Virus record (IMG/VR): IMGVR_UViG_3300020112_000918
Location: 32,001 to 96,000 of that record
DNA: 64,000 bases
From: a virus
Lineage: Duplodnaviria; Caudoviricetes
Reading direction: 5' to 3' (one strand)
Within the stretch, counting starts at the first letter, position 1. Each line of letters opens with the position of its first letter. Below, piece by piece: positions 1,396 to 34,248 of this stretch. A program made the translations under genes and the position numbers. Below the pieces are notes generated by a model. That model was given only the letters and a program-made list of their open reading frames with translations, had not been told where the DNA came from and did not search any database.

Positions 1396-2298
1396 ATGAG
1401 CGTGTATCACGGATCACATAGAATAGCTGGATCTAATAAAAACGTTATTCGAGACAGTTTAACTCGTCAGGATACTACTTGGTCTTCTGCCAAAATTGCT
1501 GAAGAAATTCAAAATGCTAAAACATATGCATCCTACGCAGCTATGCTTGGAGAAAACTTTACTAACGGGGTTTTAACAGAACGCAACTTAGTAAATGTTT
1601 TAGGAGCTACTAGTGTTGCGGATGCTTTTGCTAAGCTGCAGGCAAAAACTTCTGTGGGAGATTTTACAAACTTAGGATTGGGAGACTATATTGATATTCC
1701 TTCTATCACTTTTGACGGTCAGACTTTGACTCATAATCCTTCTTATGAAAATCTTCGAGTTCAGATAATTGCGTTTGACTACTTTAAAAACTACTATAAT
1801 ACTACTCATCATGCAGTAATGCAGTTTAAGCATTGTCCTTTTAAAAAGGAAATTAACTCTGCAAACTCTAACGTAGGTGGCTATCCTGCTATGCCTATAG
1901 CAGGTTACTTGAGTACTACTTTTGGAGCAGGACTTGAAGCAGCTATAGGAATTAACTGTTTGTCTATTAAGCAGTTCTTCCAGAAAGCAGCTACTGCTTG
2001 GTCGAACTCTACAGGATACAAAGTATTTTTACCTACAGAAAATCAGCTGATTGGACACAAAGGTTCTTCTACAGTAGCTACAAATTTTGTTTCCTATGAA
2101 CTAGGTCAGTTCCCTTACTACACAATTAATCCTAAGGGTCTTATGAAGAACTCTAATGGAGTACTTCACTACTATTGGACAGCTTCTCCGTTGTTTGCTG
2201 TCTCGTATCGCTTTGCTTACGTGGGCGACAGTGGTCGCGTGTACGACGGCAGTGCTAATGATGACGTTATCGGTGTTGCTCCAGTTTTCTGTATCTAG
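1396..2298 (+). CDS. DGR1 target protein, C-type lectin fold (DUF6273-like), probable receptor-binding/tail tip protein
   Basis: C-terminal YYWTASP...FAYV...GVAPVFCI; 3' end is the variable repeat matching TR at 2826-2921. Confidence 0.9.
   Translation: MSVYHGSHRIAGSNKNVIRDSLTRQDTTWSSAKIAEEIQNAKTYASYAAMLGENFTNGVLTERNLVNVLGATSVADAFAKLQAKTSVGDFTNLGLGDYIDIPSITFDGQTLTHNPSYENLRVQIIAFDYFKNYYNTTHHAVMQFKHCPFKKEINSANSNVGGYPAMPIAGYLSTTFGAGLEAAIGINCLSIKQFFQKAATAWSNSTGYKVFLPTENQLIGHKGSSTVATNFVSYELGQFPYYTINPKGLMKNSNGVLHYYWTASPLFAVSYRFAYVGDSGRVYDGSANDDVIGVAPVFCI
2189..2284 (+). repeat. DGR1 variable repeat (VR1)
   Basis: 96-bp ungapped match to TR1; 18 mismatches, all at TR adenines. Confidence 0.97.
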
Positions 2299-2317
2299 TA
2301 TCCAAAATCTTTAATCT

Positions 2318-2337
2318 GGGCTGCATACCTGCAGCCC
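2318..2337 (+). promoter_or_regulatory. DGR1 target-recognition hairpin/cruciform
   Basis: GGGCTGCA-TACC-TGCAGCCC: 8-bp GC-rich stem, 4-nt loop (GGTA = GRNA on bottom strand), just after VR/IMH. Confidence 0.85.
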
Positions 2338-2362
2338 TTGTAACACAGGTTGAACGAGGAAT

Positions 2363-2815
2363 ATGAGCGTACCAGTAAGAAAAAGAAATTTATCTAGCCT
2401 TGAGTTCTATAATACAGCAGTTACAATCTACAAGGACATTGTGTCTATCTTAGACAAACTGCCGAGAAAATTGGTAGATTCAACCAGTCACGAAGTAGAT
2501 AGAACTTACTTAATAGATTTCTATCAGAAAGCGTTTCTGAAAACTTATGAAGATATGATGCTGAATATTGATTTAGCAAATGAGATTTTCATAAGTGATA
2601 AAACTGCAGCCCAGTTTAGAAATAGAAGATTGAGTTACCAGGATACAGCTATCGCTATGTGTACTCATTTAGAAACTCTGGTAGAATTGCTTACAATGAA
2701 TTTTCCTAAAATCGTAGGAGAATTAGGGGTACTGTCTCAGAATCTGGAATTTGAGTTGTCTTTACTAAAAGGATGGAAAGAATACACTAAAAAGAAAAGA
2801 AAGGTGCTTGACTAA
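2363..2815 (+). CDS. avd: DGR accessory variability determinant (Avd-like four-helix bundle)
   Basis: MSVPVRKR..LEFY start, IDLANEIF..RRLSYQDTAI, C-terminal LLKGW; lies between target and TR. Confidence 0.85.
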   Translation: MSVPVRKRNLSSLEFYNTAVTIYKDIVSILDKLPRKLVDSTSHEVDRTYLIDFYQKAFLKTYEDMMLNIDLANEIFISDKTAAQFRNRRLSYQDTAIAMCTHLETLVELLTMNFPKIVGELGVLSQNLEFELSLLKGWKEYTKKKRKVLD

Positions 2816-2825
2816 AAATTATCGT

Positions 2826-2921
2826 CGTTGTTTGCTGACTCGAATAACTTTGCTAACGTGAACAACAATGGTAACGTGAACAACAACAATGCTAATAATG
2901 ACATTATCGGTGTTGCTCCAG
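2826..2921 (+). repeat. DGR1 template repeat (TR1)
   Basis: AAC/AAT-rich (13 AAY codons) copy of VR1. Confidence 0.97.
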
Positions 2922-3194
2922 ATTTAGATAAATATTTGATATCCCAATCTAGAGATCTTAAGTTGTTACACTTCAACTACAAAAAGTGTTGGGATTTTTA
3001 AATTTATTTAAAGGAGTCAAGAGTCCTGCTAGAAATAGCAAATCTTCGGTTTTGACATAAGAAAGTGGACGCTGCTTGCATGGTAGAAGCGTAAGCAAAC
3101 TTCTATTTCATACTTTCAAAATTATGCAGAGTGTAACTTAATTGCTAAAATCCTTCCTCTAGAAAGGATACTCTGTGCAAAACCTTTTTATTTT

Positions 3195-4286
3195 ATGACT
3201 TCTGAAGATCGACGAGAATTAAGATACCAGCGAAGAAAAGCTAAAAGAATTAAAGACCAACCAGATTTTTCTGAACTTTTAAAACCAGAAAATTTATACA
3301 ATTCCTACAAGCTATGCAGAAAAGGAACTTCTTGGAAAGCAGCTGTGCAACGCTATGGAAAACACTGTATACGAAATATTTTTGCTTCTATTGAAAAGCT
3401 AAAGAAAGGAGAACCAATTACAGAACCTTTCAATCTGTTTGAAGTTCAAGAGCGAGGACGTATCAGAGTAGTTATGAGCGTTCGTATAAAAGAAAGAGTA
3501 GTTCAGAAAGCCTTGCATGACTATATACTATTTCCTATTCTAAAACCTACATTAATTCCTGACTCGGGAGCTTGTATAAAAGGAAAAGGAATTTCTTTTA
3601 CGAGAAAACGACTTAAAGAGCATTTGCGCAGATTTTATAGGAAGACTGGAAATAATGAAGGCTACGTACTTTGTGTAGACTACTCGAATTACTTTGGCTC
3701 TATAAGGCATGATGTCTTGTTAAAGTTTTTATCCAAAAAGATTCGAGATGAACAGGTATTAAAGCTAGTAAAAGAAATTTTAGACAATTATAAAAAAATC
3801 GGCTTAGGACTAGGTAGTCAAATTTCTCAGCTATGTGCTTTATTTTATTTAAGTTCAGTAGATCACTTTGTGAAAGAAAAGTTGCGAGTAAAATATTATG
3901 GTCGTTATATGGATGACTGCTACTTAATAAGTGACTCAAAAGAGGAACTTAAGTATTGGCTTAAGGAAATTAGAAAGTTTAGTGAATCCGTTCTAGGACT
4001 AACTATAAGTTCTAGAAAAACTACTATTCAGAAATTAACAAATTTTAAGTTCATTAAGGGACACTACTGCTTATCTCTTACTGGAAAAATTAAAGTTTTT
4101 CCGGATAGGAAAACATTTTTAAGATTTAAACACAAATTCGTTAAAATGTTGAAAATGAAGTGTTCCGAAGAAATTTTGCTTCCTGTAGTGCAGAGCTGGA
4201 AAGGTCATTTAAAATATTTTAATTCTTGGAAAGAGAAGCAAGCAATGTTTAAGCTCTTAGGAACCTATTTAATTAAATCTAGCTAA
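3195..4286 (+). CDS. DGR reverse transcriptase RT1
   Basis: ERVVQ, DYSNYFGSI, GLGSQISQ (DGR-type GxxxSQ), RYMDD; MTSEDRRE..YQRR N-terminus. Confidence 0.95.
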   Translation: MTSEDRRELRYQRRKAKRIKDQPDFSELLKPENLYNSYKLCRKGTSWKAAVQRYGKHCIRNIFASIEKLKKGEPITEPFNLFEVQERGRIRVVMSVRIKERVVQKALHDYILFPILKPTLIPDSGACIKGKGISFTRKRLKEHLRRFYRKTGNNEGYVLCVDYSNYFGSIRHDVLLKFLSKKIRDEQVLKLVKEILDNYKKIGLGLGSQISQLCALFYLSSVDHFVKEKLRVKYYGRYMDDCYLISDSKEELKYWLKEIRKFSESVLGLTISSRKTTIQKLTNFKFIKGHYCLSLTGKIKVFPDRKTFLRFKHKFVKMLKMKCSEEILLPVVQSWKGHLKYFNSWKEKQAMFKLLGTYLIKSS

Positions 4287-4296
4287 GGAGAATAAG

Positions 4297-4701
4297 ATGG
4301 TTTACATTTGGAATAAAGATGAACAAGTAGTATTTCATACAGATAAAAAGTTTGCAGTAGAAGTAGAAAAACTCCCTGCTACGCCAGACTTAGAAATGTC
4401 TGAAGAAGAATTTTATGCAAAACAGCCTATCCGAATAGTAGACGGAAAGTTTACTTTTGGAAAAACTGAAGAAGAACTTTCTCAGGAGGAAGCTGCAGCT
4501 GTAAGAACTAAAAGAGATTATCTTATAAATGAAGTTCAATGGCGTGTAGACAGATACCTTGAACAAAAAGCTGCAGGAGAGACTACAGTAGATTCAGAAG
4601 CAAAGTTTAAAAAGATTTCTGCTTACATAAGAGCTCTGAGAGACATTCCTACTCAGAAAGGATTTCCTTTTGACGTTGTCTGGCCAACTCTGGAGGTCTA
4701 A
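4297..4701 (+). CDS. phage tail (fibre) assembly chaperone-like protein
   Basis: RTKRDYLI...YIRALRDIPTQKGFPFDVVWP motif; CCTATTT at 4264-4270 upstream. Confidence 0.8.
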   Translation: MVYIWNKDEQVVFHTDKKFAVEVEKLPATPDLEMSEEEFYAKQPIRIVDGKFTFGKTEEELSQEEAAAVRTKRDYLINEVQWRVDRYLEQKAAGETTVDSEAKFKKISAYIRALRDIPTQKGFPFDVVWPTLEV

Positions 4702-27740: not shown

Positions 27741-29615
27741 TTAAGCTACGTCTTCTGTTATAGAAGCTCCGGCTGCAGAATTGATGAAGTTGAACAGGAT
27801 TGTTTCTGACTTAGGTGTAACTTTAATAGCTACAGTAAGAACAAATGCTTCCTGAGCAAGAACATCATCACCGTTGTTTTCGCTGTCGCACTTAATAGCG
27901 TATTCACGAAGAACGTTGTTTGGTGCTGCAAGGAGAGGTTTAAGAATGAGGTCAGCCTTGTTACGAACTGTAGCACGGTGAGCATCATCATTAAACTTGA
28001 TCAACTGATATGGAAGAACTTCGTTGTAGATTCTTTCAACACAGTAGTCAACAATAGCAGAGTAGTCTGCGTAAGAGTAGTTTCCAGCAGATTTGTCTGT
28101 TGAACGACGAGACATAATGATAGGTCCGAAAAGTTCGTTTGGTCCGATAGGATTTACACGACCTGTATCCATAGCCTTTGCTTCGTCTTCTGTACAGTTG
28201 TAGACAAACTCAACGATACGACCCATAGAAAGCTGACCACCTACCTGGTTTTCATCAGCCCATGCACAAGCACGTCCACCGTATGAGTAAACAAGAGCGT
28301 CTGCATATTTAGCAGCAACTTCACCCATAAGAGTAGAAATAAGGTCGCCTGTTGGTTCATAAGGGTTCTGAATATAAGCAGCTCCCCAGAAAGTTTTGAT
28401 ACCGCGGTTGCTCAAAGAGAGAGGAATCTTTGAAAGCATGTCTGCTGCTGTGCAAACAGCCTGTGGATACAAGTAAGTCTTGTATTTTGCAAAGCCGTCA
28501 CGCAAAGCAGAGAAGGCAGTTGGAACAGCTTCATTTGCAGTTGTATCAAAATAAATATCTGTTGGATATTTTTTGATATCTTTAAACTGGTCCCATGCCT
28601 CGGTAAGAAGAGTGCCATCTGGTTCAATACCACGGTAGCCACCCTTGAAGTCTACTAAGTCACTAGAGTCTCCAGCCCAAGTGTCCCATACCATTTCTTC
28701 GCTTTCATTAACCTTTACGAAGATGTTATCATCATCTTTGAAAAGAGTTGGAGCGTAGATGATAAGACCTGAAGCATTCTTTGTTCCCTTTTTGAGAGAG
28801 AATTCTTTAGGATAGCTTGTCATAGGGTAATTGATACCCTTTCTTTTCTGCTGAAGGTCAAGAACCAAGTTTCCTGAGTTTTCAGACTTGTAAACTGCAG
28901 CAGCCATGTAATCATCGCAAGCATAACGCATACCAACAAGACCGTAAACTTTCTTTGTGAGAGCCTTTGTGTTTGTTGTCATACGAATAGAAACAGCCAC
29001 GCCATCAGCAGGAGCAGTTTCAAAAGTAAGAGAAACAGAAACAGCAGATTCTGCAGAAGTTATAGTTCCAGTTACTCCGTCAGCAGAAAGGCTGTAAGCA
29101 TGGTCACTTGCATTCCAAGAAACGCTAAGTTCCTTAGCTACTCCGTTTACAACGTAGTAACATTTTGGCATGTAAGAAGCTGTGTCGCCTGTTGAGAAAG
29201 TTGGGAAAACGTCTGCAGAGAAAGTTGCAGAGAAAGAAACAGTAACTCCGTTTCCTACTCCGGCTTTTGCCTGCATTGGAAGATTTGCAAGGTCGATTGC
29301 ATTTTCATCTTCGCCAACGAAAGTGACTGGCTTAAGACCATTTTCTGTGATAAGTAAACCAGCAGAAGCACCACCTACGTTTGGAGCAGAAATCCAAAGA
29401 GGGTACTTAGTATTGTAAGCAATAGCTTCGAGAACTTCGTAACGAGTTGCACCGAAAAGCTGACGAATACGTTCTGTTTCACCACGATTAATTTTTACAG
29501 GCTTTGTTCTACCTCTGCCACAAGGAAGAACAGTTGCGCCCATTCCAGTAGCTGTTGCTGCACCTACTGAAGCTGACTTGTCGTTCAATTGAACTTTTAA
29601 ACGCCATGAATCCAT
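27741..29615 (-). CDS. tail sheath protein (gp18-like)
   Basis: 624 aa; GRVNPI, FNDDAHR, IKCDSENN, IKVTPKSETILFNF. Confidence 0.9.
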   Translation of the reverse strand: MDSWRLKVQLNDKSASVGAATATGMGATVLPCGRGRTKPVKINRGETERIRQLFGATRYEVLEAIAYNTKYPLWISAPNVGGASAGLLITENGLKPVTFVGEDENAIDLANLPMQAKAGVGNGVTVSFSATFSADVFPTFSTGDTASYMPKCYYVVNGVAKELSVSWNASDHAYSLSADGVTGTITSAESAVSVSLTFETAPADGVAVSIRMTTNTKALTKKVYGLVGMRYACDDYMAAAVYKSENSGNLVLDLQQKRKGINYPMTSYPKEFSLKKGTKNASGLIIYAPTLFKDDDNIFVKVNESEEMVWDTWAGDSSDLVDFKGGYRGIEPDGTLLTEAWDQFKDIKKYPTDIYFDTTANEAVPTAFSALRDGFAKYKTYLYPQAVCTAADMLSKIPLSLSNRGIKTFWGAAYIQNPYEPTGDLISTLMGEVAAKYADALVYSYGGRACAWADENQVGGQLSMGRIVEFVYNCTEDEAKAMDTGRVNPIGPNELFGPIIMSRRSTDKSAGNYSYADYSAIVDYCVERIYNEVLPYQLIKFNDDAHRATVRNKADLILKPLLAAPNNVLREYAIKCDSENNGDDVLAQEAFVLTVAIKVTPKSETILFNFINSAAGASITEDVA

Positions 29616-29699
29616 GTTTTATCTCCTTAATTAAAGATTTGTTCTACTAAAGCGTGAGAAATTTCTTCACAGTTTAAATAGGTTTATAAAACAAAAAAT

Positions 29700-30332
29700 C
29701 TAGCAGGATTCAAACTTAGAGTAGTCATACTCTTCATAGTGAGTATGATAAAATTCTGTTTTAAAGATTTTAAAGAGATTAAATCTTTCTCCTACTTTAC
29801 ACTTATTTAAGTGATGGTAAAAAGGAACTTGATATGTTACAAAATCGTTAGGAGTACAATAGTTTCGAATAGTTTTAGCAAATTTGCTATATTTTTTCTT
29901 TGCAAAAGGATTTAAGAGGCAAGCAACACTTCCATAGGTTGTAACTTCATCTAGCTGTCCAAGTCTTGAATAAATATGAATCATAGACAAAACAGACATA
30001 GCTGAACCAAAAGACCAACCTCGAATAATTCTTTTGTAAGTAGGATACTTATGAGCTGCTTCACAAAATTTGTCAATAGGAGTATTTTTAGCAGAGGTGT
30101 AAGCACAAGCGTAGCCCTTAGTTGTCCAAACTTTCTTGCTGTCCAGTTTAAGGGTACAGGGTAAGAATCTAAAATTGTGCTCCCAGTCTTTATGTGAATC
30201 AGATTCTTCGTACTGAAGAATAATCTCTTTTGTTTCATGGTTAACCAAGACTATAAAGTCTATGTCTTCTCCTACTATTTCATAGTCTCGGAAAGTTTTT
30301 ATGTCATAAAATTTCTGTTGCTCTTGAGTCAT
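29700..30332 (-). CDS. class 3 lipase-like alpha/beta hydrolase
   Basis: GWSFGSA nucleophile elbow (GxSxG), TYGS, NDFVTYQVP, C-terminal His. Confidence 0.8.
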   Translation of the reverse strand: MTQEQQKFYDIKTFRDYEIVGEDIDFIVLVNHETKEIILQYEESDSHKDWEHNFRFLPCTLKLDSKKVWTTKGYACAYTSAKNTPIDKFCEAAHKYPTYKRIIRGWSFGSAMSVLSMIHIYSRLGQLDEVTTYGSVACLLNPFAKKKYSKFAKTIRNYCTPNDFVTYQVPFYHHLNKCKVGERFNLFKIFKTEFYHTHYEEYDYSKFESC

Positions 30333-30625
30333 TTACCTACCCCCACAAGATTTCCTTCTTCATCATAGCTGCGTTCTCTTAAAGTAGAAATCTCATCACG
30401 ACATCTCTGACGTTCTATAAGAACTTCAGCTGGAACATCTTTTCCGATTTCCTTAGCACGAATTGCATACCAGTCAGTGTCTTTTAGGTACTGCTCATCT
30501 TTTTCAATTAAATCAACATCTACTCTCTGCTGAGAAATTAAATGAGCTGCAACTTTTTCTTCTGTACTGAGTTCTTCAATGTCTGTTTTAGCAGAATTGA
30601 TTTTATAGCCAGGCTGATGAAACAC
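30329..30625 (-). CDS. tail fibre assembly chaperone-like protein
   Basis: YLKDTDWYAIRAKEIGKDVP.EV..ERQRCRDEI motif; start uncertain. Confidence 0.65.
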   Translation of the reverse strand: MFHQPGYKINSAKTDIEELSTEEKVAAHLISQQRVDVDLIEKDEQYLKDTDWYAIRAKEIGKDVPAEVLIERQRCRDEISTLRERSYDEEGNLVGVGK

Positions 30626-31910
30626 AGTTTTCTATATGAGATTTTCTTACATCTTCCTGGCAATTAATATCTCCCTGAACGTCTTCTACTTTAACAAAAT
30701 CAAAGATAGCTACATCGGGATTCTTAGTTGTTTTACCATCATAAAAAGTATTTTTACCTATTGAAGCTCCTACTATGAGAACAGGAACTCCAAGTATGTC
30801 TTGTATTCTGGTATGTTTTCTAGAGTCATAAGGCTTAACTACTTTATCTAGCTGCAGCAACATATCAGCTCCGTATATATGAAAAGTTTTATAAAGTTCA
30901 TCAAAATGATACTTTTGTCGGAATCTAGTTGCTTTACAAAAATCTAAAATTCCTTTATAAGAAGCAAGTGAGTGGTCTATTTTGAAGATTTCGTAATCTG
31001 TAAACTGAACGGTATTTTCAAGTGCTCCTTTATCTATTAAAGAACTACACAACCTTTGAATATTTCTAGCTGTGCGTCTTTTTAAGGTAGTCACAGAGTT
31101 TCCTTTAAAGTCTACAAAAGAACGATATCCTAAAGCCTGAACGCAGCTTCTTACACAAGCTAATCGATTTTTGGAAAGATTTAACTTGAGTTCCTCCTTC
31201 ATAAATAGGGGAATTTCTTTGCTAAATTTCTTTAAGTACTCTCTGTCATTAGAAAAGACATAAGTATCATCGCAGAATCTAACAAAATGAAGATGCCATT
31301 TATGCACTATCCAGAGGTCTAGCTCATTTAGATAAAGATTTCCTAACCACTGAGAAGTAAAATTTCCTATAGGAATATTAGTAGGACTGTTAATAGAGTC
31401 TATAATTTTGTCTAAAGTTCTTAATAAAGGAGGATCTTTAATCTTTTTACGAATTATTTCCTTCATCTTTTCATGATTTAATGAAGGATAAAACTTACGA
31501 GCATCTAGCTGAACGTACCATTTGTATTTACGAATGTACTCAACAATTTTGGCATGAGCTGCTTGAGTTCCTCTTCCCTTTATACAAGCAAAAGAATTGT
31601 CCTGCATAAGTTTAGCCCAAAACGGCTCAAGTACATTCATAATTGCATGATGTACCATTCTATCTGGAAAAACAGAAGTTGCATAAATTGTTCGCTCTTT
31701 TGGTTCATGTATGACTTTTATTCTATAAGGGCTAGGAGTGTATTCTTCATTTTTAAGAAGTCTTAAAACTTCATCTTCATAGTAAACATGATTTTCACCT
31801 ATCTCTTTTATTTCTCTATAAAAACCCTTGCCCAAAGTACACTTGTGGTAGGCTTTGGCTATATTTTCAGGTGTACAGATTTCTTCCCAAAAGCCAGTTT
31901 TTCTTTTCAT
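30603..31910 (-). CDS. DGR reverse transcriptase RT2 with C-terminal extension
   Basis: EPKER.I, FPDRMVHHAIM, LDARKFYPS, PIGNFTSQWLGNLYL, RFCDD, LGYR. Confidence 0.95.
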   Translation of the reverse strand: MKRKTGFWEEICTPENIAKAYHKCTLGKGFYREIKEIGENHVYYEDEVLRLLKNEEYTPSPYRIKVIHEPKERTIYATSVFPDRMVHHAIMNVLEPFWAKLMQDNSFACIKGRGTQAAHAKIVEYIRKYKWYVQLDARKFYPSLNHEKMKEIIRKKIKDPPLLRTLDKIIDSINSPTNIPIGNFTSQWLGNLYLNELDLWIVHKWHLHFVRFCDDTYVFSNDREYLKKFSKEIPLFMKEELKLNLSKNRLACVRSCVQALGYRSFVDFKGNSVTTLKRRTARNIQRLCSSLIDKGALENTVQFTDYEIFKIDHSLASYKGILDFCKATRFRQKYHFDELYKTFHIYGADMLLQLDKVVKPYDSRKHTRIQDILGVPVLIVGASIGKNTFYDGKTTKNPDVAIFDFVKVEDVQGDINCQEDVRKSHIENCVSSAWL

Positions 31911-32095
31911 TAGAATGCCTAAAAATAACGACTGTTCTTCAACTAAACTCTTAAAGGATTTTTCGATTCATTATCTACTAAATTATCTTTAAAACACTCT
32001 CGACTGTAAATTTGTCGTTTTATGAAACGTGCAGGTACAAGCTGTCAGTCTTATAAGTTTAAAAGCGGAGTGAGAGTTACTCCTCAACTTATGAT

Positions 32096-32212
32096 ACTCG
32101 GAAACAGCACGGAAACCAATGTTGTTGTTCAAATTCAAAGGAGAATTGTTCCAATTCAAACCACGAGATCCACAGTTATCACCATCGTTCCAATTCCCAC
32201 CCAAGTGAGCAC
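32096..32212 (-). repeat. DGR2 template repeat (TR2)
   Basis: 117-bp ungapped match to VR2; 10 AAY codons. Confidence 0.97.
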
Positions 32213-32333
32213 AAGGCACAAAAATGAATTTTTAGCAGCTACACCGAAGAACCGCACATAGCGAACAGCTAATACCTAAGAACAGCCGTTATTTTTATCC
32301 ACTCCTTTTACAGAATTTTGTTTTAACAAGGAT

Positions 32334-32397
32334 TGGGGAGCGCAAAGAACATCTGCCCCTGCGGGGCAGTTGTGCCTTGTGCTTTGCGCATTCCCCA
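32334..32397 (-). promoter_or_regulatory. DGR2 extended hairpin downstream of VR2
   Basis: Core CTGCCCC-TGC-GGGGCAG (32353-32369) inside outer pairs GCGCAAAG/CTTTGCGC and TGGGGA/TCCCCA. Confidence 0.8.
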
Positions 32398-32433
32398 CTA
32401 TTTTGCATTCCCCTGAGTTCCCCTCACTTAGTT

Positions 32434-34182
32434 TTACTTGTGCATTGACTCGGAAACAGCACGGAAACCAAGGCTGCTGTACAAATCCAAAGGAGAATTG
32501 CCCCAACTCAAACCACGAGAGCCACAGCCATCACCAACGTCCCAACCCCCACCCAAGAGAGCACGTTTACCCGCACCGAAGTAGTACTTACCCAGTACAT
32601 CACGCTTGTTAGCGTTAAAGTTGTCGGACCAAGTAGTAGAACCAGAAGCATCGTAGCTACTTTCACTAGACCACTGCCACAAAACACCTACGATATCCTC
32701 TAAACCGCAGTAAGAAATAATACGCTTATCATTTGTAGCCAAGTGCCCACTCGTAGTTACAGGGTCTATCGAACCTTTAATATTTACTCCCTGAGGAGCA
32801 CCCCTAGCTAAGTCGCCAAACTCGGCTATTGTAGGAAGTCTCATGCCTTGATAATGAAGCTGCTGCTCTCCGTCAAGACAGCCTAAAGCTGGAGTAGAAG
32901 CTCCATCAAGAATAGTTCCCCCATTTTTAGAAACCATTTTAAAGCTGTCATTAGGGTACTTACTTCCAGAAGCAGTAGTTCCTGTTGTCCAAATGTTTAA
33001 AGTTGCGTCTTTAGACATTAAATAAATTGAAGCCCAAATTCCTAAAGTAGGAGCGTAAGCAAAACCTTCTGGACAACAAACAGGTCTGTGCCATAAATCC
33101 CATACAGAGAACGGATGAATGTAGCCAGCCACTGCTCCTGAGAATGGATGCACTTCTGTAGTAGAGTAAACCTGCTCAGGAGTAACAGAAACACAAAGTG
33201 TATCAAATCCACCTATAATTCTTGCAGCCAAGGCTCCAGTAAAGGTCTGTTTATCAGAAGTAGAAATCTTAAACAGCCAGTTATCCTGATCTATGTAAAC
33301 TAAGTAAACAAAGTAACTAGTACCTGCTGCAAAAGCATCTCCGCTAACTAAGTTAGCTGCAGAAATTGTAATTTCATCATCTGAGTAGAAGATGTGACAA
33401 GTTCCATTATTTTCAAAAACAGGAATAGGAGTACCTGCTTTAAGTACGAGAGATTTCCAAGTAGAATCCCCTGCTGCAGCTAATTCCCAATTTTCTTCTG
33501 AACCTCTATAAGAGTAGTAGGTTCCGTTTGGACGTGTCTGACAAGCAGGGTACAAGAACTTACCAGATGAGAGTCTGTCATTAGCTGGATAAACAAGTCC
33601 TGCAAGTTTTTGAGATGACCAAGTAGACAGCGGAGAAGTTTCTTCATCTTGAATAAGCTCTTCATCAACGTCATCTATAATGTTGTAAAGAGTATTTGAG
33701 TCCTTAACAGGAATTGCATCAAACTGTTCTTTAGTACCTGACCAGAGAGTTGTGATACTTTCAGATTCTACTGAAACCTTTACCGAATAAGTAGTGGTAG
33801 AGTCTGCTGTAAGAGTTACAGAGTTTTCTGTTAAGTTCATAGTAGAATAAGAAACTTCACCTACTTCAAGATACTTAACAGTTAAAGCGTGGCTGGTGGT
33901 GTTTACAATCTTGATTTCATTTCCCTTAAAGGCTGTTACATCGGACATATCAAGTACAGCGTCTGCGTCACCTGTGAAAACAAGAACTGCATTTCGCTCA
34001 ATACGAGAAAGAGTTTCATCATGAGAAAACTCTACTGCTCTCTGAGCTGTAAAAGGCTTGATTATGTTGTTATTTGTTTCTACTGTAGAAAGAGAAACTA
34101 GAGGATCCTTTTGAGTGCCGAAAGGGGGAGTATAGTCTGGAATTCCTGGAACTGTTAAAGAGTCAAGAGTTAAGTCTATCAT
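32434..34182 (-). CDS. DGR2 target: tail fibre/Mtd-like protein with C-terminal FGE-type C-type lectin domain
   Basis: RLPTIAEF, GLEDIVGVLWQW, LLGGGW...GSR...GFRAV; tail-fibre motif WSGTKEQFDAIPVKDSNTLYNI. Confidence 0.9.
   Translation of the reverse strand: MIDLTLDSLTVPGIPDYTPPFGTQKDPLVSLSTVETNNNIIKPFTAQRAVEFSHDETLSRIERNAVLVFTGDADAVLDMSDVTAFKGNEIKIVNTTSHALTVKYLEVGEVSYSTMNLTENSVTLTADSTTTYSVKVSVESESITTLWSGTKEQFDAIPVKDSNTLYNIIDDVDEELIQDEETSPLSTWSSQKLAGLVYPANDRLSSGKFLYPACQTRPNGTYYSYRGSEENWELAAAGDSTWKSLVLKAGTPIPVFENNGTCHIFYSDDEITISAANLVSGDAFAAGTSYFVYLVYIDQDNWLFKISTSDKQTFTGALAARIIGGFDTLCVSVTPEQVYSTTEVHPFSGAVAGYIHPFSVWDLWHRPVCCPEGFAYAPTLGIWASIYLMSKDATLNIWTTGTTASGSKYPNDSFKMVSKNGGTILDGASTPALGCLDGEQQLHYQGMRLPTIAEFGDLARGAPQGVNIKGSIDPVTTSGHLATNDKRIISYCGLEDIVGVLWQWSSESSYDASGSTTWSDNFNANKRDVLGKYYFGAGKRALLGGGWDVGDGCGSRGLSWGNSPLDLYSSLGFRAVSESMHK
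32448..32564 (-). repeat. DGR2 variable repeat (VR2)
   Basis: 16 mismatches to TR2, all at TR adenines (T on + strand). Confidence 0.97.
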
Positions 34183-34248
34183 ATAAAATAATCTCCTTAC
34201 TTATTTAAGTAATTAAATAGGGTGAGAGAAGTTTTAAAGAGTAGAACT

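Follow-up and report, generated by a model that had tools for sequence, protein, structure and literature searches.

The window analysed here (64,000 nucleotides, positions 32,001 to 96,000 of IMG/VR record IMGVR_UViG_3300020112_000918, a virus of the Caudoviricetes) contains two diversity-generating retroelements (DGRs), and the reverse transcriptase (RT) of the second element, DGR2, carries a C-terminal tail beyond a complete RT core. We think it reasonably likely that the tail of this avd-less DGR RT, RT2, is the 3'-truncated copy of an accessory module, here called B, with an oligonucleotide/oligosaccharide-binding (OB)-like fold, that B is a family dedicated to such RTs, and that the copy in the window was broken by a deletion of 332 bp. 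Judged from its sequences, B is an unannotated family, and it is tightly linked and fused to DGR RTs in cassettes without a recognisable Avd. The value of the locus lies in the family that it exposes, rather than in the truncated allele itself; the window's own module is most likely a deletion remnant.

The tail of RT2 and its avd-less cassette

DGR2 lies entirely on the minus strand. Its target gene (32434..34182) encodes a 582-aa tail-fibre/Mtd-like receptor-binding protein with a C-type-lectin/FGE-sulfatase-like C-terminal end; the Pfam matches to Phage_tail_C (7.8e-11) and mtd_2nd (7.6e-7) are both past threshold, and an FGE-sulfatase match at the C-terminus (6e-4) is below the cut-off. 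The variable repeat VR2 (32448..32564) occupies the 3' end of this gene, approximately its last 40 codons, and differs from the template repeat TR2 (32096..32212) by 16 mismatches, all 16 of which are at adenines of the template repeat (TR); the differences between VR2 and the variable repeat (VR) of a relative, locus L071, fall at the same TR-adenine positions. DGR2 thus shows all three features used as DGR criteria, namely an adenine-specific TR/VR pair, an RT of the DGR clade and a VR at the C-terminus of an Mtd-like target. The adenine-site diversification indicates that the element has been active in this lineage, be it before or after the deletion. The gaps from target stop to TR (~220 nt) and from TR to RT (~185 nt) contain no Avd-sized open reading frame (ORF); because they hold just 76-aa frames overlapping the TR or the target end, there is no room for avd, as an earlier reading made from the sequence alone (hereafter the sequence-only reading) had claimed. 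DGR2 is of the target-TR-RT type and lacks avd.

RT2 (30603..31910, minus strand) is 435 aa long against 363 aa for RT1 of the other element, both lengths being as previously read. Its core, approximately residues 1-345 (30876..31910, minus strand), comprises fingers, palm and thumb and is a complete DGR-type reverse transcriptase: it matches RVT_1 at 1.9e-17 and phrog_1423 at 2.5e-84, and it contains the DGR motif IGNFTSQ (I/LGxxxSQ). An AlphaFold model of the closest full-length relative (474 aa) matches, with its first ~341 residues, the entire solved structure of the Bordetella phage RT, bRT (8ub7_A, 328 aa), with a template-modelling (TM) score of 0.91 normalised to bRT, and this is the top structural match. 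Most of the ~120 homologues of RT2, which include crAss-like phage RTs, are 335-345 aa long and cover ~78% of it. That the tail is an ordinary long thumb is ruled out, because the first ~341 residues account for all of bRT, and neither bRT nor the 335-345-aa homologues extend past residue ~341-345 of RT2. The creation of the fusion by stop-codon loss in this window alone is ruled out too, all 13 of the 13 listed 474-aa relatives being fused as well. The sequence-only reading had itself named an ordinary thumb and a sequencing error that removed a stop codon as possible objections; neither is borne out, and its claim that some 86 residues are extra to the RT is upheld by both the superposition and the homologue lengths.

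At the junction between core and tail, the minus strand reads, within the RT2 frame, a Shine-Dalgarno (SD)-like GGAG (30869..30872), the spacer CTGAT and, after these 5 nt, an internal ATG (30863-30861), exactly as described before. This in-frame ATG opens the 86-aa tail (30606..30863, minus strand), which we regard as the remnant of module B, with the linker and strands b1-b3 kept and the helix, b4 and b5 gone.

Five RT calls in our set (P0008, P0016, P0017, P0029 and P0096) begin ~90 codons too far upstream and run across the template repeat, so that their N-termini resemble variable-region peptide; they are probably gene-calling artefacts that arise where the TR is open in the RT frame.

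A family of small proteins beside DGR RTs

Alignment of the longer homologues of RT2 revealed two distinct C-terminal modules, type B and type A. Type B, which is similar to the tail in the window, occurs fused in P0003 and some twelve relatives of 491 aa as well as in P0043, P0069 and P0175; in P0007 it is the first of two modules. Free-standing B proteins of 92-93 aa, among them one cluster of 140 sequences, came to light in a profile search; this compact B matches phrog_19665, a family of unknown function, at 2e-6 and has a neutral to mildly basic isoelectric point (pI 6.5-9.2). The cassettes of loci L008-L010 illustrate the split arrangement, in which an Mtd-like target, the TR and a 342-aa RT are followed by B (92 aa, with a 14-nt overlap with the RT stop) and then by A (99 aa).

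The association with DGR RTs is consistent across the IMG/VR loci. In 38 of the 46 loci with B, a DGR-type RT lies immediately upstream on the same strand, and in three others (L056-L058) the order is VR-B-TR-RT, which places B in the avd slot; in L056, for example, the VR (3803-3914), B (3995-4276) and the TR (4316-4427) precede the RT. The RT therefore adjoins B in 41/46 loci, and the remaining five are either cut by a contig end (two) or hold partial copies without an RT nearby (L049, L052 and L062). The sequence-only reading had suggested a resemblance between the RT2 tail and small ORFs that follow the RT in some Avd-less DGRs, and it had proposed a search for a separate gene beside DGR RTs elsewhere. 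Such genes were found: at the level of the family the resemblance is real, with separate ~93-aa genes directly after RTs, and the possibility that homologues are never DGR-associated is not borne out.

All B cassettes tested have adenine-specific TR/VR mismatches. Their VR-TR gaps measure ~40-470 nt (less than 160 nt wherever B follows the RT) and their TR-RT gaps roughly 100-300 nt, and no Avd-sized gene lies in these gaps; in L056 and L058, B itself fills the wide VR-TR gap. The Avd Pfam models (PF22296 and PF05635) found no match in five B-bearing viral records, two of which reach a completeness of 98% or more. Directly behind the RT, B is also found in the archaeal viruses ANMV-1 (L011:4986-5282; KP703175, protein AJP62065) and Methanosarcinales virus vir525 (L012:4992-5279; BK063673), where it is annotated as hypothetical; these archaeal proteins are 38-47% identical to bacterial-phage B, and the archaeal virus RTs in B loci are only ~32-38% identical to RT2. 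Fusions of the types RT-B, B-A, RT-B-A and RT-A were found, in several lineages and with different linkers, and the fused forms make up clusters of 153 and 171 member sequences. No second B was found in the window's genome.

Protein A, the second module, has ~100 aa and is acidic (pI 4.6-4.8); it begins with M.G[FY]PK.L..K.DYE and ends with ..G[FY]T..EV. It follows B in many cassettes and is fused straight to the RT in others; its fused forms are P0005, P0026, P0044, P0075, P0105, P0111, P0114 and P0120, with P0007 carrying it as second module; further examples are L008:5294-5593, L002:7495-7836, L003:1780-2079, L004:3363-3677 and L005:6308-6610. A has no counterpart in Pfam or PHROG, and no A homologue was found in the window's genome. 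In vir525, an 82-aa ORF has an A-like start, MRGYP..L.K.DYE.

Two further loci bear on the range of B. At L005:6016-6300 the B frame is broken by a frameshift, which could be a sequencing error or natural decay; the RT of this locus falls into a 340-aa cluster with 1262 sequences, and the VR and TR of the locus still differ by 22 adenine mismatches. In the crAss-like phage cr55_1 (L064:2417-3742), the tail of the 441-aa RT measures ~90 aa and contains a faintly B-like stretch, ..I.NVLN..L.F.DYKI.., scoring only ~9 bits against the family profile. Judging by this motif, crAss-like avd-less DGRs may carry a diverged B.

The junction signals point to a particular mode of expression. In a scan for GGAG or GAGG at positions -18 to -4 of the window's genes (6% background), 36 of 62 genes had an SD motif, and the SD-like site in RT2 is plausible because this phage uses Shine-Dalgarno sites. 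Among the fused forms with DNA available (four RT-B and four RT-A, from different lineages), 8/8 have GGAG, GAGG or AGGAGG 5-12 nt before the junction Met, inside the RT frame, against a background of 4-14% per 15-nt interval in the fused genes and 4/64 for their other internal Met codons. Free-standing B and A genes carry the same signal. Both RT starts of the window (31911-31932 and 3173-3194) and most RT starts examined in related loci have no SD, which suggests deliberately low RT translation. Because the junction SD and Met are kept while most RT starts lack an SD, the accessory module is probably made mainly as a free protein by internal initiation, in excess over the RT. The earlier proposal that the module is made both fused and free fares well in one respect, since an SD precedes the junction Met in all eight fusions as would be expected, and less well in another, the window copy being truncated.

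Predicted fold of B and the truncated copy in the window

Structure predictions were made for a 474-aa relative of RT2 and for its module alone. In the AlphaFold 2 model of the former, the mean predicted local distance difference test (pLDDT) score is 87, with values of ~63-90 in the module and low confidence in linker residues 351-360; the module consists of strands at residues 376-386, 399-407 and 427-431, a helix at 434-445, and strands at 455-461 and 467-471. Modelled alone, it shows the same order of elements at a pLDDT of 66. The full-length module, ~125 aa in the 474-aa relatives, is thus predicted to be an OB-like five-stranded barrel of the order b1-b2-b3-helix-b4-b5, and the window protein ends after residue 433, right after b3. 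The models bear out the view that the tail is beta-rich and non-Avd, with five strands, one main helix and no likeness to Avd.

Comparisons of the predicted module with known structures lead in the same direction. Foldseek against the PDB gave nothing significant, with PrgE, RPA and the PRD1 P12 SSB, a protein binding single-stranded DNA, on top; an exhaustive VIA search returned almost exclusively OB-fold SSB, PriB, RPA and POT1 structures, at Z no higher than 4.6; and the matches in BFVD were long-tailed viral RTs and several small podovirus SSB models, at E 1e-3 or weaker. One language-model neighbour cluster of the module carries the label Phi29_Phage_SSB on 44% of its members, which is the sole link to that family, and 21 B members had no Pfam match, whether to PF17427 (Phi29-type SSB) or to any other family. 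Judged by its predicted fold and its genomic context, B most likely binds single-stranded nucleic acid, either TR RNA or cDNA.

Does the tail in the window belong to this family? Compact B and the P0003-type fused module are clearly related (hhalign 94%, E 1e-7, 80 columns). The window type shares with the B family the position after thumb and linker and the SD and Met at the junction, and the predicted strand-helix order of the 474-aa module lines up with the conserved blocks of B; we infer that compact B and the 474-aa module share a fold. As these three features agree, we consider it likely that the window's module is a diverged member of B. A BLAST comparison of the window type with the P0003 type, in a small set, gave ~6e-4. 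The positions that B conserves best (FTGS, the helix, a PF motif and the final YY.F strand) are all in the part deleted from the window; the conserved C-terminal half is missing from this copy, so that the comparison is confined to the N-terminal part. Sequence searches with the window's module and its full-length form recovered few relatives: the window type has no counterpart in Pfam or PHROGs and no tblastn match in 50,697 phage records, a megablast of the DGR2 cassette against the same records gave no match, and phmmer with the full module against 1.84 billion representative proteins found two near-identical fragments only.

Several observations weigh against the proposed reading. The relation between the window type and the P0003 type is weak (hhalign 37%, E 3.6e-4, 49 columns, b1-b2 only), and the direct match between the window type and compact B is negligible, about 6 bits over 32 residues. 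The structural matches are too weak to tell a shared fold apart from a common arrangement; the phi29 SSB is unrelated by sequence (hhalign against phi29 gp5, probability 0.2%); and the module has no match to any Pfam family or PDB sequence, the profile of B against the PDB giving nothing credible. The conserved SD motifs could be relics of recent stop-codon loss rather than selected features; their recurrence across lineages with different linkers argues, at the level of sequence, for retention. Finally, the adenine-site diversification of VR2 shows past activity of the cassette in the very lineage in which the module is broken.

The nature of the break is apparent from close relatives. At least 13 of these (~95-99% protein identity to RT2) encode 474 aa; the 90% cluster holds 153 sequences, and among the 15 members listed 13 have this length, on contigs of up to 135.6 kb, and only the window's protein, recorded from one contig of 133,795 bp, has 435 aa. 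At the DNA level, the window is 93-96% identical to loci L001 and L071-L073 from 34221 (or the locus end) to 30613; a segment of 332 bp present in these loci is then missing at a deletion or recombination junction (30610..30613, minus strand), and the alignment restarts at 30610 at just 84% identity. The missing segment is found nowhere else in the 133,795-bp record. The deletion takes the last 41 residues of the RT, which are replaced by WL-stop, and also the start and ~64 codons of the next gene. The second casualty, as read from the alignment, is a tail-fibre-assembly-like gene (30329..30625, minus strand), now 5'-truncated, which encodes 154 aa in relatives and whose full-length relative matches phrog_4912 at 3.2e-8; the sole possible start left to it is a GTG inside RT2, with no SD before it. 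Next to it, and just downstream of DGR2 in the tail-fibre region, lies a class 3 lipase-like gene (29700-30332, minus strand; Lipase_3, Pfam 1.5e-9).

Because identity to the relatives shifts abruptly at the junction, from 93-96% over the DGR2 cassette (30613-34221) to 84% over the next genes (27741-30610) when L071-L073 are compared, the junction is a mosaic boundary as well. Upstream of 34221 there is no similarity to L071-L073, and the cassette gives the impression of a block exchanged on its own, the right edge of which cuts through the accessory module. The junction flanks in the relatives share a few bases of microhomology and no long identical word; since such flanks offer little to mislead an assembler, a real recombination or deletion event is favoured over an assembly error. 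The lost tail varies conservatively among the 13 listed 474-aa relatives. The window's B copy, without its helix and last two strands in the model, is most likely a non-functional remnant. The idea of an accessory module put forward in the sequence-only reading therefore survives in so far as related modules exist, free and fused, near DGR RTs; the copy for which it was proposed is probably unable to do the job.

Whether the 435-aa allele might nevertheless be a working DGR enzyme deserves consideration. Strands b1-b3 could be enough, B could be dispensable, or the DGR1 ORF 2363-2815 could be used in trans, and several facts fit such a view: the RT core, TR and VR are intact, VR2 and TR2 differ only at TR adenines, and VR2 and the relative's VR differ at those same sites; many homologous RTs of 335-345 aa have no fused tail; L005, with its frameshifted B, still shows 22 VR/TR adenine mismatches; and the phage's other DGR has, in the slot of Avd, a helical ORF of 150 aa. 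The adenine mismatches may, however, be older than the deletion, and the deleted part holds the positions that the family conserves most (FTGS, the helix, the PF motif and the YY.F strand), is conserved in 13/13 listed 474-aa relatives and would leave half an OB barrel, which is unlikely to fold; a shared cofactor is not expected because RT1 and RT2 are only 23% identical. We thus consider a working truncated enzyme unlikely. The persistence of the truncated allele may mean that B is dispensable, that the accessory protein of DGR1 substitutes for it, or that the variant is recent or defective.

Still less probable, in our judgement, is that the truncation is an assembly artefact and that the true phage has a 474-aa RT and an intact downstream gene. 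The single metagenome contig with the 435-aa form, against many with the 474-aa form, and the jump in identity from ~95% to 84% at the junction are what a chimeric join of two strains would produce; set against this, the sides of the junction share just a few bases of microhomology and no long identical word in the relatives, the missing segment does not occur elsewhere in the 133,795-bp record, and mosaic boundaries are normal in phage genomes. We give very little credence to the view that B is no DGR factor at all, but an unrelated phage gene (e.g. for a structural protein or a replication SSB) that travels with RTs in tail modules, with the fusions being gene-calling or sequencing accidents. 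The link of B to DGRs does rest on genomic context, three partial B loci (L049, L052 and L062) have no RT nearby, and Wu et al. warn that a neighbour common to phages that are themselves related says little about a role in DGRs (PMC5758913). Adjacency in 41/46 loci nonetheless extends from bacterial phages to archaeal viruses with RTs ~32-38% identical to RT2, B lies between VR and TR in three loci, and the fused forms, which arose in several lineages with different linkers, make up stable clusters with 153 and 171 members.

We therefore return to the reading of a DGR-dedicated accessory module with a broken copy in the window. A full-length module B is connected to the thumb by a flexible linker and would form an OB-like barrel, its helix lying between the third and fourth strands. 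B occurs as a ~93-aa gene that overlaps the stop of the RT, in the VR-TR slot of Avd, or as a fusion to the RT, and in fused RT-B, internal initiation at the junction SD and Met would yield mostly free B that exceeds the RT. On TR RNA or cDNA, B would assist cDNA synthesis or homing where Avd is absent. In the window, the 332-bp deletion at the mosaic boundary removed the helix and strands 4-5 of B, together with the 5' end of the next gene.

Relation to Avd and to other known systems

The other element of the window, DGR1 (1396..4286, plus strand), has a different layout: a target gene (1396-2298) with VR1 (2189-2288), an ORF (2363-2815), TR1 (2826-2925) and RT1 (3195-4286, 363 aa). The ORF encodes a helical protein of 150 aa with a pI of 8.6 and lies between VR1 and TR1, the canonical Avd position. 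It has no sequence match in Pfam (including the Avd models), PHROG or the PDB, and a scan of viral contigs for relatives found just one 22-residue fragment; its nearest named language-model neighbour is the bAvd cluster, with a weak score of 0.83, and this is its sole link to Avd. The ORF may encode a very divergent Avd. Searched with PF22296 alone, the window's genome gave no match; the putative Avd of DGR1 likewise escapes the Avd profiles.

Avd-less cassettes are themselves not new. Of known DGRs, 29% have no accessory gene and Lineage 3 lacks avd (Wu et al. 2018, PMC5758913), ~20% of DGR RTs bear unexplained C-terminal extensions of up to ~150 aa (PMC5758913), and the DGRs of crAss-like phages (LMMB) are avd-less target-TR-RT cassettes (PMC7290462). 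In ANMV-1, a different small ORF was labelled Avd by size and charge only (PMC4372165); the conserved post-RT gene B had gone unremarked, and the annotation of this virus is affected. Among open-access papers and preprints, we found no report linking an OB/SSB-like protein to DGRs. What appears to be new is the assignment of such extensions to a recurrent, foldable and separately encoded partner family.

B, with its partner A, is a widely distributed candidate for a part in the priming and homing of cDNA in avd-less DGRs. B, we infer, stands in for Avd and acts together with the RT. We put forward only tentatively, as a proposal somewhat more open to doubt than to belief, the broader view that B and A together make up an undescribed accessory system that replaces Avd across a sizeable group of viral DGRs of the target-TR-RT type, including that of ANMV-1 and possibly those of crAss-like phages, with an SSB-like OB-fold B that would handle TR RNA or cDNA and be supplied in excess over a poorly translated RT from its own retained ribosome-binding site. 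For experimental work, B with its partner A has the advantage that its boundaries are defined and its fold is predicted, that fused, split and truncated alleles exist in nature, and that its translational signature is clear.

The RTs of group II introns carry a DNA-binding (D) domain after the thumb. This domain is like B in its C-terminal position only; no similarity in fold or sequence was seen, group II RT structures align to the RT core alone, and B, unlike the D domain, also occurs as a separate gene. The OB-fold SSBs (PRD1 P12, phi29 p5, podovirus SSBs and bacterial SSB/PriB) resemble the module in predicted topology and in size (~95-125 aa), but the structural matches are weak (Z at most 4.6; Foldseek E 1e-3 or weaker), and the genomic role of B is linked to an RT instead of a replication module. 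Compared with Avd of the BPP-1 DGR and its homologues (bAvd PF22296 / 23S_rRNA_IVP PF05635), B is likewise a small protein within or beside the DGR cassette, it occupies the same VR-TR slot in three loci, and for both a joint action with the RT on nucleic acid is presumed. Avd, however, is a helical-bundle pentamer, whereas the prediction for B is a beta-barrel plus a single helix; the Avd profiles match neither B nor the B-bearing viral genomes tested, and B, unlike Avd, usually lies downstream of the RT, with many fused cases. Among the closest counterparts of DGR2 are the avd-less DGRs of Architecture A / Lineage 3 (PMC5758913, PMC7290462), which have the same target-TR-RT order and the same post-thumb extension without a recognised motif, a likeness in the layout of cassette and RT. 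Whereas the surveys of those elements assigned no accessory gene and left the extensions unexplained, the extension considered here is tied to a recurrent free-standing family with a predicted fold.

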